Of a stretch of DNA of 64,000 nucleotides, positions 21,491 through 39,056 are shown piece by piece (positions within the stretch are counted from its first letter, which is position 1; each line of letters opens with the position of its first letter). Source of the stretch: Escherichia phage phT4A; the sequence record NC_055712.1. One strand, written 5' to 3'. The position numbers were made by a program, and so were the translations under genes. The notes under the pieces are model-generated. The model saw only the letters and a list, made by a program, of their open reading frames with translations. It did not search any database and was not told where the DNA came from.

Positions 21491-22126
21491 ATGAAACATA
21501 TTATCTACAAAATAACAAATTTGGTTAATAATAAAATTTATGTTGGTGCTCATTCAACAGAAGACATCAACGATTCATACATGGGTTCAGGGGTGGCTAT
21601 AAAGGCGGCTCAGAGGAAGTATGGTATCGATAAATTTATAAAAGAAATATTACATATTTTTGATACCCGTGAAGAAATGTATGAAAAAGAAAGAGAGATT
21701 GTTAATCTAGAATTTGTTAATAATCCACATACATATAATATGGGTATCGGTGGTGATGGTGGCCCTATGTTGGGTATGTTTCATTCAGAAGAGAAGAAAC
21801 AAGAAATTTCCAAGATTACTAAAGAGAGAATGACAGATGAAGTAAAATCTCGTCTCTCTAAACTTAAAAAGGGTAAACCACAGTCCAAAGAATCCAACAG
21901 GAAGCGCTCAGAGACGTTAAAAGCTAAATATATGAATGGACGTATAGACAGAGAGTATAAACCTCTCACAGAAGCGCACAAGGCGAAATTAGGCCGTTCT
22001 GTATCGATAGATGGAGTTGTATACTCATCCGGATCGGAGGCGGCAAAATCCCTTAGTATGTCCCACTCTGGTTTAAAATATCGGATTAATAGCGACAAAT
22101 ACCCTACCTGGAAATTTGTTGCATAA
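21491..22126 (+). CDS. GIY-YIG homing endonuclease, SegD-like
   Basis: 211 aa; canonical N-terminal GIY-YIG module (IIYKITNLVNNKIYVGAHS ... GSG), basic C-terminal DNA-binding tail; sits between 23 and 24 as segD does in T4. Confidence 0.8.
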   Translation: MKHIIYKITNLVNNKIYVGAHSTEDINDSYMGSGVAIKAAQRKYGIDKFIKEILHIFDTREEMYEKEREIVNLEFVNNPHTYNMGIGGDGGPMLGMFHSEEKKQEISKITKERMTDEVKSRLSKLKKGKPQSKESNRKRSETLKAKYMNGRIDREYKPLTEAHKAKLGRSVSIDGVVYSSGSEAAKSLSMSHSGLKYRINSDKYPTWKFVA

Positions 22127-22158: not shown

Positions 22159-23448
22159 ATGAGTGAAAAATTTTACACAATTAACAAGCTGGTGCGTCAG
22201 TCACAGCTACCGCCTGGCCTGTCTAAAAAGGTTCTTGATGAGGCAACCGGAACAGAAACAATTAACGTAGCTAATACCCGTCCGGATCTGGTATCTCTTA
22301 CCCGTGCGGTAAACAACCTGATCTACGGTGAACTTGTAGCAATTCAGGAAACTAATTTGCCTACCGCAACTCTGTTCGGTGTGCGTTATCGTAACCCTAA
22401 AGGCGATATGACGTTTTCCAGCGCTGCTACCTATTCCGGTAAGTATGCAAGCCGTGATAACATTCCAGTTGGTGCGGTTGGTACTGCCTATACCAAAGGC
22501 CAAGTTTTTAAACATCCGACAAGCGATGTCGTATACGAAGCAACTGATAGCGTAACTCTCGCAGGTGCTGATATTGATGAAGCAATTATGGTCGCAGTAT
22601 TCAGCAATAAATTACGCCTGGCAAGCGAAGCCGCGCCAACAAGTCAGTATGAAACCAGCGAAGATATTAGCACAACTTCTTTCGAAATGGATCGTTGGAA
22701 TATCAACGTTCGTTCCCGTAAATTCAAAACTGAAATGACCGTGGAACTTATGCAGGATCTGGAAGCAAACCAATTCAACGCAGAAAATGTGATTGAAGAT
22801 GTTCTGGGTACTGTTGCCAGCGAAGAAGTAAACAAAGATATCATCCAGACTCTGATCAACGTATCACATCGTTACAACGTTGATGGTGTGGTAACAAATG
22901 GCATTTTCGATGCTACAACCGCATACACTGCAAAGGATGCTCCGGCTTTAGGTCGTTTCCTGTATCAATTAGTGTGTGAAATGGGGCAGGAAATGAATAG
23001 AACGACTTCATTTGAAGCTACCTATGTCCTGGCCTCTTCTCGCGTTGTAAGCGTTCTGTCTGCGTCTGGTTGGATGCATGAAACTGATGAAACCCACCCG
23101 TTAGCAACAGGTCGACTTAAAAACGGTTATTATGTCTATACTGACACCAATACACCGTTTGATTACCTGTTGACTGGTTGCAAGTACGATCTGGGTGAAA
23201 TGGATCATGTTGGCTCTCTGTTCTATACGCCATACACAGAAGCTGATCAGGCAGGTTCTATCAAGATTTCTGTTGATCCTCAATCCTTACAGCCTAAAGT
23301 TGCTATTCTGATGCGCTACGGTTTATCGGTTAACCCGTATACCACTGCTGCTAATGAAAGACTTGTGAAAGGTGATGACTGGGTAAACCTCTCAGGCAAA
23401 TCTAAAATGAGTCAGATTGTTGGTATCAAACTTCCTAAACTGGGTTGA
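22159..23448 (+). CDS. 24: capsid vertex protein gp24
   Basis: 429 aa; TVELxQDLEAN, MVCEM, SIFYxPYTE, VxPYTxA match T4 gp24. Confidence 0.95.
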   Translation: MSEKFYTINKLVRQSQLPPGLSKKVLDEATGTETINVANTRPDLVSLTRAVNNLIYGELVAIQETNLPTATLFGVRYRNPKGDMTFSSAATYSGKYASRDNIPVGAVGTAYTKGQVFKHPTSDVVYEATDSVTLAGADIDEAIMVAVFSNKLRLASEAAPTSQYETSEDISTTSFEMDRWNINVRSRKFKTEMTVELMQDLEANQFNAENVIEDVLGTVASEEVNKDIIQTLINVSHRYNVDGVVTNGIFDATTAYTAKDAPALGRFLYQLVCEMGQEMNRTTSFEATYVLASSRVVSVLSASGWMHETDETHPLATGRLKNGYYVYTDTNTPFDYLLTGCKYDLGEMDHVGSLFYTPYTEADQAGSIKISVDPQSLQPKVAILMRYGLSVNPYTTAANERLVKGDDWVNLSGKSKMSQIVGIKLPKLG

Positions 23449-23481
23449 TAGTATAACCCAACGGGGATAATATTCAATAGG

Positions 23482-23509
23482 TGGAGTAGGGAAACTTACT
23501 CCATCTTTT
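23482..23509 (+). terminator. hairpin (tggagta...tactcca) + T tract after gene 24
   Basis: 7-bp inverted repeat followed by tctttt. Confidence 0.45.
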
Positions 23510-23529
23510 AATAATTATTATAATTAATA

Positions 23530-23735
23530 TTAAATTAGATCTTGAATTTATAAATGATTTATGATAAAATTTATTAATTATAATAATTATAGATCAAACA
23601 ATTTTTGAAATCAAGTAAAAATAAATTTGATTTTATAAATTAGATCATGTATAATTATTCTTTTAATAATATATTATATTAGATCAATTTAAATTTGACT
23701 ACTAATTAATATAGTATATTATAGATCAACTGGGT
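23530..23735. repeat. AT-rich intergenic region with five spaced TAGATC(A/T) iterons (GATC at 23538, 23592, 23643, 23682, 23724)
   Basis: Five copies of the same 7-mer at 39-54 bp spacing in a roughly 85% AT stretch upstream of uvsY. Confidence 0.6.
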
Positions 23736-23752
23736 AAATTGGTGAGTATGTT

Positions 23753-24172
23753 ATGAGTTTGAAATTAGAAGATCTACAAAATGAACTTGAAAAGGATATG
23801 CTGATAGATCCCCTCAAGTTGCAATCAGAATCAGCGGATATCCCGAAGATTTGGGCTAAATGGCTTCGATACCATTCAAACGCTAAGAAAAAATTGATCC
23901 AACTTCATGCGAAAAAAGAAGCTGATGTGAAGGATCGTATGTTGTACTACACCGGAAGGCATGACAAAGAAATGTGCGAAGTGGTGTATACTGGGACTAC
24001 TGAAATTAAAATCGCGATCGCTGGGGATCCGAAAATTGTAGAAACCAACAAGCTGATCCAGTATTATGACATGGTGGTAGATTTCACCAGCAAAGCACTG
24101 GATATCGTCAAAAACAAAGGATACTCTATCAAAAACATGTTAGAGATCCGTAAATTAGAAAGTGGTGCATAA
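23753..24172 (+). CDS. uvsY: recombination mediator protein UvsY
   Basis: 139 aa; LEDLQxEL(E/K)KD, LQxExAxxxxxxxKWL, RxxYYxGR, DxxKxKGxxIK pattern matches T4 UvsY. Confidence 0.9.
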   Translation: MSLKLEDLQNELEKDMLIDPLKLQSESADIPKIWAKWLRYHSNAKKKLIQLHAKKEADVKDRMLYYTGRHDKEMCEVVYTGTTEIKIAIAGDPKIVETNKLIQYYDMVVDFTSKALDIVKNKGYSIKNMLEIRKLESGA

Positions 24173-24348
24173 TGTCTACTGAAAATGAAAAATGTGTAGT
24201 GTGCAAGTGTCCGGTTCCTTCTACTGGTTTTGTGACTGAATCTGGGCGCGTGTGTAGTACTATCTGTGCTGACTACATCGCAGAAAAAACAAAAAACGGC
24301 GAGATCAACGAATCCGATGATCTGAATGAAGTTCAAATGTTGCTGTAG
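24172..24348 (+). CDS. small zinc-ribbon protein (uvsY-adjacent small ORF, 58 aa)
   Basis: ATG overlaps the uvsY stop; CVVCKC...CSTIC cysteine pairs; below the track length cut-off. Confidence 0.45.
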   Translation: MSTENEKCVVCKCPVPSTGFVTESGRVCSTICADYIAEKTKNGEINESDDLNEVQMLL

Positions 24349-24592
24349 GAGGATCTTATGATTGGATACGGTGAAGGAATTACAGATCGTGATGAACATC
24401 CTGATTTTTAGTGCATAAATACTAGCGTACCCGAAAGGGGCTTGATAAAAGAATGCTGGATGATAGGCGTACTCTTTTGCGCCGTCCGATGGAGTTTACC
24501 TTCGGCGGGGTGATTGATAATATACCTTCGATCAAGGGCATGTGAATAGAATAGCCAGAATAGTACAGCACTGGCGTTAAGCAAATGTACAA

Positions 24593-24618
24593 AAGCCCCT
24601 TCCTTTCGGTTGGGGCTT
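24593..24618. terminator. bidirectional terminator between the convergent uvsY operon and uvsW.1
   Basis: aagcccc / ggggctt stem flanked by an A tract upstream and a T tract downstream. Confidence 0.65.
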
Positions 24619-24622
24619 CTTT

Positions 24623-24856
24623 TTAGAACTTTTCTTCTTCTCCGCTTTCGAGTTCGGCCTTTAATTCTTCGGCTCGACCTTTCAGCGCATCGCGCATAGA
24701 AATATCGTCTGACGGCGCAACATCAACTTCTTTTACACGATTTTTGTAATATTTTTCAAGCTCTTTAAGGCCGTCCATAGTACGGCAAGAGGCGACCTTG
24801 CTCATGAAATCATCAATAGCCGCCTCATAAAGTCGAAAATCGTTGAAACTCTTCAT
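24623..24856 (-). CDS. uvsW.1: UvsW.1-like small protein
   Basis: 77 aa ORF immediately downstream of uvsW on the same strand, as in T4. Confidence 0.7.
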   Translation of the reverse strand: MKSFNDFRLYEAAIDDFMSKVASCRTMDGLKELEKYYKNRVKEVDVAPSDDISMRDALKGRAEELKAELESGEEEKF

Positions 24857-30951: not shown

Positions 30952-31827
30952 ATGAAAATCAATTTACATCGCTTCATTGTAGAATTTTCCCGCGACCGCG
31001 ACATGGACTCTTTCAACTACTACTCCCGTGAAATTGAAGATCGTTTTGCGGCTCATGTTGGGTTCCGTCGCCACCATACTCCTAAAATGCGCCCTGACCA
31101 CGATCCGAAGTATAGCCCTATCACATGGCAAGCCCCGATCAATGGTTACGTTGAAGGGATCCGGATCATGACTTTTAACGCGATGTATGGAAACGCTTTG
31201 ATCCATATTGCACGTGAGAAAAGGGCAGAATTCCCTAACGGCTGGCGTATTGATGAAGTGATTCAAACCCTTATGCAGTTACGACGTGAATACAAAGCTG
31301 GTATGTGTCTGCGTAATGAACAGTATCCGATGTATAAAACGTATGCCTATATCTCTAAGCATCTAATTAATTCCATGTTTTACATCGTTGGTAATCATGG
31401 TTCCGCTATAGATATCGGTTCTTATGAAATCGTGGCTTATGCTCGCGAACAAGGAAAGGCCGCTGCACTGAAAATCATTGAATCTGGTGCTATCATTCTT
31501 AACCATCGCATTGATACTATTGCTTACTATGGCGATCAGGTTGAGGTTGAAGGCGTACACCATGAACGATTCAACAAAGCCGTATTTGCTAAAAATGGTT
31601 ATGCTTATGGTAATGACATTATAACTTCTGCTATTCCTTTCGTTCGTCTAACTGTTGAAGGATTTGGAGAAAGGTTGCCTTATAAACTGTCAGAAGCTCA
31701 AATGTGTGCGGCTGCTGAAAGAATCGCCAAAAAGCGGAAAATGTATACCGATGAATACCTGGCGTATGTCAACAAGACAAAAGAAGATGTAGATCGAGAA
31801 ATTTCTTGCATGGATTTGTGCCTTTGA
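30952..31827 (+). CDS. hypothetical protein
   Basis: 291 aa ORF, no family recognised. Confidence 0.55.
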   Translation: MKINLHRFIVEFSRDRDMDSFNYYSREIEDRFAAHVGFRRHHTPKMRPDHDPKYSPITWQAPINGYVEGIRIMTFNAMYGNALIHIAREKRAEFPNGWRIDEVIQTLMQLRREYKAGMCLRNEQYPMYKTYAYISKHLINSMFYIVGNHGSAIDIGSYEIVAYAREQGKAAALKIIESGAIILNHRIDTIAYYGDQVEVEGVHHERFNKAVFAKNGYAYGNDIITSAIPFVRLTVEGFGERLPYKLSEAQMCAAAERIAKKRKMYTDEYLAYVNKTKEDVDREISCMDLCL

Positions 31828-37919: not shown

Positions 37920-38208
37920 TATCCGCAAAAACGACAAAGGAACCGTGATTTTCTATGACAACATGCCCCTTGTAGCTCGCAAGGGGCTTTTTGCTAAAAT
38001 CGCTGGGTATTCCTTTAAACTGGAAGAAGTCAACGACGAAACACTAAAAGAGATCGTAAGAATTGCCTTACAGTTAAGAGGTAAGAAAGACGAACAAAAA
38101 GCTATTGACATGATCAATAAATTGGGTGAAACTCAATGCTTCATAGTGAATCGTGGTTACAAGTACGATACCATTGCAAAATTTGAAAAAGGGCTTTGTG
38201 AATTATGA
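37906..38208 (+). CDS. hypothetical protein
   Basis: 100 aa ORF overlapping the nadV end; start uncertain. Confidence 0.4.
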   Translation: MPGFSIRKNDKGTVIFYDNMPLVARKGLFAKIAGYSFKLEEVNDETLKEIVRIALQLRGKKDEQKAIDMINKLGETQCFIVNRGYKYDTIAKFEKGLCEL

Positions 38209-39056
38209 GTTATTATGGTGTGATCCCATACACAGGAAACAAGCAAAAGCTACTTCCTGAACTGTTCAAATTATTTCCAGACAGAAACAGCTATATGCGA
38301 TTCATCGACTGTTTTTGTGGTGGTTTGAGTGTGTCGCTAAACGTCCCTAAACCCGTTCTAAGCAACGATTACGATCGGACGTTGATTGATATGTATAAGC
38401 GCCTTCAAATGCTTCCTGACCTCTCTCCTGTGCGAGAATTGATTAAACAGCATGGTCTGGGTAAGAACGAGAAAGAAGCGTATCTCACATTTCGTGATGC
38501 GTATAATAAGAACAAGGATCCTCTATGGCTCTACGTTCTGATCCTTCATTCGTTTAGTAATGTTAATCGAACCAACGATAAAGGCGATTTTAACGCCAAT
38601 TTTGGTTGTAGAACGTTGAATGATTCTACCGTTAAACGGTTTGAACACTTCAAAAATAATGTTCGGGGGATTGAATTCTCTAGCGCATCGTTTAAGGATC
38701 TTGATATCTGTTTGAATGATTTTGTGTACTGCGATCCGCCGTACCTGATCACTGATGCAGTTTATAACAAGTTCTGGAACGAAGAACGCGAGCATGAATT
38801 ATATGATTTTCTCGATAATTTAAACTCTGATGGTATCAAGTTTGGTTTATCAAACGTGACACATCATGCAGGAAAGCAAAATGATATCCTGATCGAGTGG
38901 ATGCAAAAATATAATGTGCATAACCTCGATAAAAAGTATCTGTTAGGCCAGCATACTGATTCTTACGAACAAAATAAAACGCAAGAAGTCTACGTGTGCA
39001 ACTACCAGAAACGCGACGTAAATACATACCCTGAAACACTGGATGACTTAATGTAA
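38205..39056 (+). CDS. dam: DNA adenine methyltransferase (Dam, GATC-specific family)
   Basis: 283 aa; YTGNKQKLLPEL, FxDCFCGGLSVSLN, DPPYLIT, KFGLSNV match T4 Dam. Confidence 0.93.
   Translation: MSYYGVIPYTGNKQKLLPELFKLFPDRNSYMRFIDCFCGGLSVSLNVPKPVLSNDYDRTLIDMYKRLQMLPDLSPVRELIKQHGLGKNEKEAYLTFRDAYNKNKDPLWLYVLILHSFSNVNRTNDKGDFNANFGCRTLNDSTVKRFEHFKNNVRGIEFSSASFKDLDICLNDFVYCDPPYLITDAVYNKFWNEEREHELYDFLDNLNSDGIKFGLSNVTHHAGKQNDILIEWMQKYNVHNLDKKYLLGQHTDSYEQNKTQEVYVCNYQKRDVNTYPETLDDLM

Follow-up and report, generated by a model that had tools for sequence, protein, structure and literature searches.

In bacteriophage T4, the origins oriF and oriG need only a promoter, which in both cases is a MotA-dependent middle promoter, and an A+T-rich unwinding element of about 100 bp, and oriE combines an early promoter with 12-nt iterons of unknown role; the T4 origins share no common motif, and the choice among them has been listed as an open question (PMC3016281). 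In the T4 relative RB43, Nolan et al. could identify no orthologue of motA and no consensus for middle promoters (PMC1524935). At oriC and the dnaA promoter of Escherichia coli, the over-representation of GATC, together with sequestration by SeqA, is established (PMC4285127). Here, we analyze an array of five TAGATC(A/T) motifs in an A+T-rich island immediately upstream of the recombination gene uvsY of Escherichia phage phT4A, within a 64,000-nucleotide stretch of sequence record NC_055712.1 (hereafter, the window, to which positions refer unless another genome is named). The array is best explained as a set of Dam sites lying in or beside sigma70-like promoter matches, not as iterons bound by an initiator. 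The argument draws on sequence analysis, namely motif statistics, promoter-like anatomy, a family of three such islands in the related phage KP27, the positional equivalence of a different element in phage RB16, and a Dam homologue encoded by the phage.

A first-pass annotation of the window had reported five copies of the 7-mer at 39-54 bp spacing, and all five were recovered on the plus strand between 23536 and 23728, within the following island:

23506 to 23735: A+T-rich island core, candidate DNA-unwinding element (230 bp, 87.8% A+T)
23536 to 23542, plus strand: unit 1, TAGATCT
23590 to 23596, plus strand: unit 2, TAGATCA
23641 to 23647, plus strand: unit 3, TAGATCA
23680 to 23686, plus strand: unit 4, TAGATCA
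23722 to 23728, plus strand: unit 5, TAGATCA

Successive units are 54, 51, 39 and 42 bp apart (5.14, 4.86, 3.71 and 4.0 helical turns), an irregular arrangement, and the sequence common to all five is only 7 bp long. The surrounding DNA had been described as a 300-bp AT-rich region upstream of uvsY; its A+T-richness (87.8%) was borne out, whereas its length was overstated, the intergenic interval from the terminator hairpin of gene 24 (23479-23506) to the uvsY start codon (23753, 18 bp past the end of the island) being about 240 bp. The sole long segment of at least 80% A+T within the window, 274 bp in length, lies at this island.

The five GATCs supply 10 of the 28 G/C bases of the island core and compare with an expectation of 0.16-0.39. 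Under a first-order Markov model fitted to the island's own sequence with the motifs included (mean 0.39 GATC), five GATCs appeared in none of 20,000 simulations, nor did five TAGATC in one orientation (0/20,000), and mononucleotide shuffling likewise never produced five GATCs (0/20,000). Chance clustering, which the first-pass annotation had named as a potential refutation, is thus not supported, and the 7-mer itself is not enriched across the window (TAGATCW: 13 seen, 15.3 expected). The extended form [AT]TAGATC[AT] occurs six times on the plus strand of the window, with five of the six in the array, and not at all on the minus strand. GATC as a whole appears over-represented (387 occurrences versus 232 in dinucleotide shuffles), but because its observed/expected ratio under a maximal-order Markov model is 0.99 across the KP27 genome, only the local clustering is special. 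This clustering was evident when density was compared as had been suggested: GATC occurs once per 165 bp window-wide, versus 17 times in the 900 bp starting at 23538, the densest such interval both in the window and in the KP27 genome. Beyond the shared 7-mer, units 1 and 4 follow the longer form ATATTAWATTAGATC and units 2 and 5 the longer form ATTATAGATCAA; the blocks of these two subtypes are conserved over 15 nt (93% identity) and 12 nt (100%). On the minus strand at 23770, a further copy (the sixth), TAGATCT, lies inside the uvsY codons Glu-Asp-Leu and is a coding coincidence, because T4 uvsY has the same GAAGATCT.

A consensus scan of 23300-24700 returned 14 sigma70-like sites, compared with 4.7 ± 2.6 in shuffled sequence. 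Five such sites, three rightward and two leftward, are touched by the GATCs of the array:

23542 to 23570, plus strand: P1, sigma70-like promoter, TTGAAT-17-TAAAAT with upstream TG
23586 to 23614, minus strand: leftward promoter-like site of the island-specific class cTTGATT-N13-GATC-TATAAT (TTGATT-17-TATAAT)
23627 to 23655, plus strand: P2, sigma70-like promoter, TTGATT-17-TATAAT
23673 to 23701, minus strand: second, weaker leftward promoter match, TAGTCA-17-TATAAT (a promoter in the KP27 annotation)
23695 to 23722, plus strand: P3, predicted proximal uvsY promoter, TTGACT-16-TATTAT, annotated as a promoter in KP27

At all five units, the GATC lies in or abuts the -35 hexamer, the spacer or the -10 hexamer of a predicted promoter, the placement expected of Dam-sensitive promoters. 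The GATC of unit 1 directly adjoins the -35 hexamer of P1 (GATCTTGAAT), a module that is also present in the second of the KP27 islands described below, and RB16 has GATCTTGAAA. Unit 2 reads TGATCTATAAT on the minus strand, where its GATC runs straight into the -10 hexamer of the first leftward site, and unit 3 carries its GATC in the P2 spacer, 3 nt upstream of TATAAT. Unit 4, whose minus strand reads GATCTAATATAAT, likewise has its GATC in a spacer, that of the second leftward site, with the -10 hexamer 3 nt further downstream. At unit 5, the overlap is with the final base of the P3 -10 hexamer and with the region where the uvsY mRNA is predicted to begin. Units 2 and 5 share the exact 11-mer TGATCTATAAT on the minus strand, the copy in unit 5 being without a -35 hexamer, and on that strand every unit reads GATC followed by a -10-like hexamer of the form TAnnnT (TAATTT, TATAAT, TAATTT, TAATAT and TATAAT for units 1 to 5). 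P1 is paralogous to P2 and to one promoter of KP27 island 2, P2 looks like the promoter that precedes uvsY in distant relatives (TTGATTttatgtttattGATCtcTATAAT at locus L013 is one case), and both the -35 hexamer and the position of P3 are conserved in the sister genus Pseudotevenvirus. Downstream of P1, P2 and the first leftward site, the DNA is 88% A+T, the most A+T-rich of the window; the first leftward site is directed into this kind of DNA, antisense to gene 24, with no gene downstream.

Two further features of the array were noted. A perfect 19-nt inverted repeat composed of A/T only (23511-23529 and 23572-23590) encloses unit 1 and P1 and might extrude as a cruciform; KP27 and most other relatives have an imperfect version, so the perfect repeat may be private to the phT4A strain. 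In addition, all five unit starts are congruent to 1 modulo 3 and every spacing is divisible by 3, matching the phase of gene 24; this phasing was judged probably a product of chance (about 1 in 81, post hoc), and a 5-bp insertion in phages Matisse and Snake_ER16 breaks it.

The enzyme expected to recognize these sites had also been assigned in the first pass, and the assignment proved correct:

38205 to 39056, plus strand: phage Dam, GATC N6-adenine methyltransferase (Pfam PF02086)

The product is a close homologue of T4 Dam (PDB 1YFJ and 1Q0S; E = 1.5e-84) and is presumed to be the trans-acting modifier of the island GATC sites.

Over 1.5 kb around the array, the window shares 99.5% identity with Klebsiella phages PhiK2046, KLB15 and PMBT1 and 98-99% identity with Miro, KP27 and KP15; as judged by sequence, it belongs to the genus Slopekvirus (KP15/KP27/Miro type), T4-like phages of the family Straboviridae. 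The whole KP27 genome (NC_020080.1, 174 kb), with about 98% identity to the window around the array, was assembled for analysis and contains exactly three islands that reach both 270 bp in length and 80% A+T:

KP27 31191 to 31461: island 1, between rnh and gene 55, 9 GATC
KP27 100483 to 100752: island 2, between gene 3 and an open reading frame (ORF) of unknown function, 8 GATC
KP27 134959 to 135252: island 3, between gene 24 and uvsY, counterpart of the phT4A array, 5 GATC

Island 3 is homologous to 23506-23735 of the window; islands 1 and 2 fall outside the 64 kb and are known from KP27 and other Slopekvirus records. Although the three islands make up 0.5% of the KP27 genome length, they hold 17 of its 28 TAGATCW motifs, five of the six copies of GATCTATAAT in the 174 kb, and all five copies of the 11-mer ATTATAGATCA. 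Four of the five island copies of GATCTATAAT have an upstream cTTGAyy at a 17-bp spacer and share the arrangement cTTGAyy-N13-GATC-TATAAT. The signature TGATCTATAAT is common to all three islands along with other modules, with GATCTTGAATTyATAAAT present in both islands 2 and 3 and TTTAGATCTGATCT in both islands 1 and 2. Sigma70-like hits are concentrated there as well (16 of 111 in the genome), and nine of the 16 inside the islands contain GATC, compared with nine of the 95 outside. Islands 1 and 2 have predicted tandem promoters of the cTTGAyy-N13-GATCTATAAT type and GATC pairs 5-14 bp apart, with motifs in mixed orientation, and island 1 includes an 18-bp perfect palindrome centred on GATC (CTACAATGATCATTGTAG). 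Among the GATC-densest 900-bp windows of KP27, three of the top four overlap the islands and their flanks. The coding DNA of uvsY and uvsY.-2 (23750-24400) is itself GATC-dense, as are the flanks of the other two islands. All three islands were found in about 112 Slopekvirus records, with the array locus in 112 of 112, and copies at least 99% identical among these records were found in 108 for island 1 and 88 for island 2.

Other sequence features of KP27 were recorded in passing. The hexamer ACGGGG, considered as a special motif of the island edges, was rejected because it has 40 copies genome-wide. Across the genome, CTAG occurs far less often than expected (observed/expected 0.40), and AGCT is likewise under-represented (0.59). 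Many of the annotated 'putative middle promoters' overlap terminator hairpins, in the manner of PeSL cassettes.

Further relatives were sought by UvsY-based scans, which yielded only 11 loci in viral contigs and seven in metagenome contigs. Conservation, on which the first-pass annotation had staked its reading, extended to all 112 Slopekvirus records found and stopped short of Pseudotevenvirus: the TAGATC array is absent from the 24-uvsY spacer of RB16, RB43, GAP161 and JC221, and also from that of more distant relatives, namely Phynn and uncultured contigs with UvsY identities of 64-74%. Those spacers contain a different element of about 130 bp, present in two to three copies per genome, in which inverted GAGCGAAGCGA and CGAACGAAGTGAG repeats surround a hairpin and are followed by TTTTTAACCA and then by a sigma70-like promoter that usually carries a GATC. 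A count of blastn places gave exactly three copies in RB16:

L003:2095-2275: RB16 element copy
L158:4140-4345: RB16 element copy
L159:2780-2965: RB16 element copy

The three copies occupy the intervals between rnh and gene 55, between gp3 and p185, and between gene 24 and uvsY, which are the same three sites as those of the Slopekvirus islands. The element was also found at loci L004, L005, L013, L014, L022 and L163, from Pseudotevenvirus and more distant relatives. The alignment register of the element under MAFFT shifts between lineages, and stems were compared by direct search; four different stem sequences were seen, each with complementary arms (AACTACAT/ATGTAGTT, ATGTACTGTTT/AAACAGTACAT, AAATGTCCACT/AGTGGACATTT and TATGGGTATTTT/AAAATACCCATA), which suggests that the stem covaries between lineages, and the A/T loop TATATTTTATATATAGAGAAAA is conserved across them. 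RNAalifold predicted no structure in the RB16-type element, owing to the long A/T loop. The RB16 element had no Rfam match, we located no published description of it, and KP27 contains no trace of the hairpin element; a search of viral contigs with an exact 14-mer of the RB16 repeat matched only unrelated contigs and was uninformative. A GATC inside the predicted uvsY promoter recurs in RB16, GAP161, JC221, L013/L014 and Phynn. Taken together, the comparison suggests that Slopekvirus replaced a widespread hairpin type with A+T-rich, GATC-bearing islands at three shared positions. In both genera, these sites are occupied by a special cis element, which argues that the array island is more than a uvsY promoter.

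The three islands are the best sequence-defined candidates for the replication origins of the phage. They may be methylation-sensitive promoter and unwinding islands that double as transcription-primed origins of the T4 type, a reading that we favour while rating it somewhat short of an even chance. Under this model, host RNA polymerase would start early transcripts at the island promoters, and these transcripts would invade the highly meltable DNA downstream; the resulting R-loops would serve as replication primers, in the manner of T4 oriF, oriG and oriE, and uvsY would be expressed from these promoters too. The GATC sites would tie firing to methylation state: infecting DNA would be fully methylated by phage Dam, the first replication pass would leave hemimethylated sites, and these might make the promoters stronger or weaker or attract host SeqA, so that the origins stop firing when the phage moves to recombination-dependent replication. 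The proposal in the first-pass annotation that the array is an origin or a methylation-sensitive element is therefore supported in part; the three-island family and the RB16 positional match strengthen it, and from such features we infer promoter activity, R-loop and origin function, and control of the islands by methylation or SeqA.

Several observations weigh against this model. Islands 1 and 2 lie at divergent gene junctions (before gp55 and an ORF), where A+T-rich promoter regions are expected in any case, and promoter-like hexamers arise so easily in 88% A+T DNA that the match of one GATC per promoter could be partly fortuitous. Within the island, an internal duplication (TCTTTTAATAAT, then ATATTAWATTAGATC, then ATTATAGATCAA, twice over) explains part of the repetition. 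In a within-genus alignment of 17 Slopekvirus copies of the array island, substitutions showed no visible avoidance of the motifs, although this alignment is too weak to show selection on them because only about a dozen sites vary, one of them inside a motif; the divergence of island 3 is close to the genome average. In Matisse and Snake_ER16, unit 3 is lost (G to T, giving TATATC) and 5 bp are inserted between units 3 and 4. The match to T4 is also loose: in the T4 GenBank record, 2.2 kb separate rnh from oriG (inside gene 34) and about 3.4 kb separate gene 3 from oriE (inside gene 5), which puts these origins approximately 2-4 kb off the island positions. Moreover, because T4 oriF, oriG and oriE have neither GATC clusters nor extreme A+T islands, the likeness to T4 origins is architectural only. 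Brendler and Austin reportedly found in 1999 that cooperative SeqA binding needs GATC pairs about 31 bp or less apart on the same helical face, and the 39-54 bp spacing of the island exceeds that limit. Finally, a literature search found no transcription-start, origin-mapping or methylome data for Slopekvirus.

Separately, the record of Klebsiella phage CPRSA (OM971648) differs from all other copies of the array exactly at the GATC guanine of units 1 and 4; its coding sequences are fragmented and it looks like an error-prone assembly. Speculatively, these differences may be base-calling errors at methylated GATCs, in which case they would hint at methylation.

Much of this evidence would also suit a cluster of promoters with no origin function, namely an early uvsY regulatory region with tandem P1-P3 and perhaps antisense 'anti-late' promoters directed against gene 24, in which the GATCs affect transcription alone or are passive passengers in duplicated promoter modules. 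We consider this nearly as likely as the favoured model. The excess of sigma70-like matches over shuffled sequence, the retention of P3 across genera and its annotation in KP27, the paralogy of P1 and P2 through internal duplication, the placement of islands 1 and 2 at divergent junctions and the lack of visible extra motif conservation within the genus all speak for it. However, it leaves unexplained why there are exactly three islands and why RB16 has three structured elements at the same sites; it does not account for the enrichment of GATC in 88% A+T DNA; and it gives the best leftward site no gene to express. Furthermore, the other divergent junctions of KP27 (gp27-gp28, gp4-gp53 and uvsW-inh) are short gaps, none of which is among the islands of at least 80% A+T. 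The iteron-like character assigned to the array in the first-pass annotation fared less well. True iterons or operators would require a phage or host protein that binds TAGATCW, or the longer ATTAGATC and TATAGATCAA, and coats the island for the start of replication or for uvsY control. The presence of five copies in one orientation, the conservation of the longer subtype blocks, the enrichment of the motif in all three islands and the precedent of the 12-nt iterons of T4 oriE, whose role is unknown (PMC3016281), are consistent with this, but the common core is just 7 bp with a palindromic centre, the 12- and 15-nt subtypes have two copies each, and orientation is mixed in islands 1 and 2. The spacing is irregular, and the Matisse and Snake_ER16 variants indicate that neither the number five nor the spacing is strictly required in a viable lineage, which counts against the iteron model. 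No DNA-binding or initiator gene adjoins the array, whose neighbours encode gp24, UvsY, a DUF2685 protein and UvsW, and no Rep-like protein was identified; KP27_206, the ORF next to island 2, yielded no Pfam domain, and the only PHROGs that it matches are of unknown function. Consensus scans of the array found no DnaA box (TTWTNCACA, at most one mismatch), IHF site, Mot box or T4 late promoter (TATAAATA), no plus-strand unit matched the oriC 13-mer (GATCTnTTnTTTT, GATCTNTTNTTTT) with up to two mismatches, and Rfam gave no credible hit within 23300-24700. With the units also embedded in promoter matches, we regard iterons as improbable.

Another kind of Dam-dependent site is rated lower still, as very unlikely, whether it is a P1-pac-like packaging or cleavage site, a sink for SeqA or nucleoid proteins, or a zone of MutH nicking that loads the gp45 clamp for late transcription. 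The three GATC clusters per genome and their GATC-dense flanks would fit such a role, and in P1 pac, clustered TGATCA/G hexamers make cleavage dependent on methylation; however, TGATCR is absent from 23440-23780, where the minus strands of the units read TGATCT or AGATCT, and the islands lie far from the KP27 terminase genes (122.6-125 kb). Packaging of the T4 type is by the headful, with no unique pac site known, and we know of no precedent for the SeqA or nucleoid-protein sink or for the MutH zone. That the array is a functionless relic, left by local duplications in a fast-evolving A+T-rich spacer, seems the most remote of these explanations. The internal duplication, the dispensability of unit 3 in Matisse and the near-average divergence of island 3 are what a relic would show, but the duplicated segments are identical at only 56 of 97 aligned columns, against 93-100% in their motif blocks, the motifs reappear in two further islands tens of kilobases distant, the island is kept throughout the Slopekvirus records, and the simulations never reached the observed GATC count.

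Reading along the window, gp23 is followed by a GIY-YIG homing endonuclease gene, gp24 (22159-23448), the island, uvsY, a uvsY.-2 homologue and a bidirectional terminator, beyond which uvsW.1 and uvsW lie on the opposite strand. The features flanking the island are as follows:

23479 to 23506, plus strand: Rho-independent terminator hairpin of late gene 24, forming the left edge of the island
23753 to 24172, plus strand: uvsY, recombination mediator (Pfam PF11056 UvsY, E = 2e-37)
24172 to 24348, plus strand: uvsY.-2 homologue (DUF2685), co-transcribed with uvsY

The terminator has a 12-bp stem followed by UCUUUU (RNA fold -18 kcal/mol, z = -5.4) and is annotated as a terminator in Miro and KP27 as well, and the uvsY Shine-Dalgarno sequence, GGTGAG, occupies 23741-23746. 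From the uvsY.-2 stop codon to the uvsW.1 stop codon, about 270 bp (24349-24622) contain no confident gene and no Rfam hit; a tiny ORF is annotated there in Matisse, and the right end consists of the bidirectional terminator (approximately 24594-24618). The SegD-like GIY-YIG gene (21491-22126) lies between major capsid gene 23 and vertex gene 24, as does a likewise inserted GIY-YIG gene in Miro, KP27 and RB16.

To our knowledge, the biological role of the Dam methylase of T4-family phages has been obscure for decades. On a scenario broader and more doubtful than the favoured model, RB43-like T4 relatives (Slopekvirus and Pseudotevenvirus) would have dedicated, sequence-defined origins at three conserved positions, Slopekvirus would have swapped the ancestral hairpin type for Dam-site promoter islands, and methylation by phage Dam would gate both firing and the expression of uvsY and gp55. 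If so, this enzyme would acquire its first clear role, and these phages the first of their origin families to be recognizable from sequence alone. Three look-alike islands that combine predicted promoters, the most meltable DNA of the genome and clustered Dam sites, together with the RB16 element, give a testable entry point to how origins are chosen and to what Dam does in T4-like phages. Slopekviruses are widely used as candidate therapeutic phages against Klebsiella, and their origins and early control regions matter for engineering. Should the islands prove to be only promoter regions, the outcome would be a modest improvement in annotation.

Among known systems, the parallel with T4 oriF drawn in the first-pass annotation holds for location only, in that oriF, like the island, lies immediately 5′ of uvsY (the T4 GenBank record gives 115321 for oriF and 115327 for the uvsY start codon, and names the uvsY transcript as the primer), and T4 shares with phT4A a UvsW helicase gene close by. 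The architecture differs: the gene 25-uvsY spacer of T4 is only 76 bp, has no GATC cluster and is driven by a MotA-dependent promoter, whereas the island is without a Mot box, and no motA is annotated in KP27. As at oriF and oriG, promoters (predicted in our case) are followed by easily melted A+T-rich DNA, and the primer RNAs of oriG and oriE, antisense to late genes 34 and 5 in the T4 record, resemble what the leftward promoter-like sites of the island would produce. T4 origins have no common motif, whereas the three Slopekvirus islands share modules. The iterons of oriE, like the array, are direct repeats of undefined role at an origin of a T4-family phage (a candidate one here), but they are 12 nt long, evenly spaced and within gene 5, whereas the array has an irregular 7-bp core that overlaps promoter elements.

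The island also resembles systems controlled by Dam. E. coli oriC and the dnaA promoter similarly carry an excess of GATC in A+T-rich unwinding or promoter DNA in the presence of Dam, and SeqA sequestration of hemimethylated GATC limits firing to once per cycle (PMC4285127). Unlike the island, with its 39-54 bp spacing in a lytic phage that has several candidate sites, oriC has DnaA boxes, 13-mers and tight GATC clusters. The core of the P1 plasmid origin, oriR, studied by Abeles, Brendler and Austin, is said to consist of 7-bp repeats with GATC whose methylation is required. Like the island, it would thus place GATC repeats of about 7 bp in A+T-rich DNA, those of P1 reportedly being read through their methylation state, but P1 oriR has RepA 19-bp iterons and DnaA boxes, neither of which is in the island.

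Within the T4-like phages, the PeSL cassettes are repeated intergenic modules with sigma70-like early promoters (PMC4122927), as are the islands, but they are short, numerous and concentrated in hyperplastic regions, each with a stem-loop and one promoter, whereas the islands measure about 270-300 bp, number three per genome and have multiple predicted promoters and GATC clusters. The hairpin element of Pseudotevenvirus shares with the islands the same three intergenic positions in RB16 and an adjacent sigma70-like promoter that often carries a GATC, yet its sequence is entirely unlike theirs. The genome paper on KP15 and KP27, which predicted promoters and noted genes for Dam and Dcm, does not describe the islands (PMC5219037), and the array is a candidate for a combination of known kinds, in which an origin made of a promoter plus an unwinding element is joined to the Dam control known from other origins and promoters.

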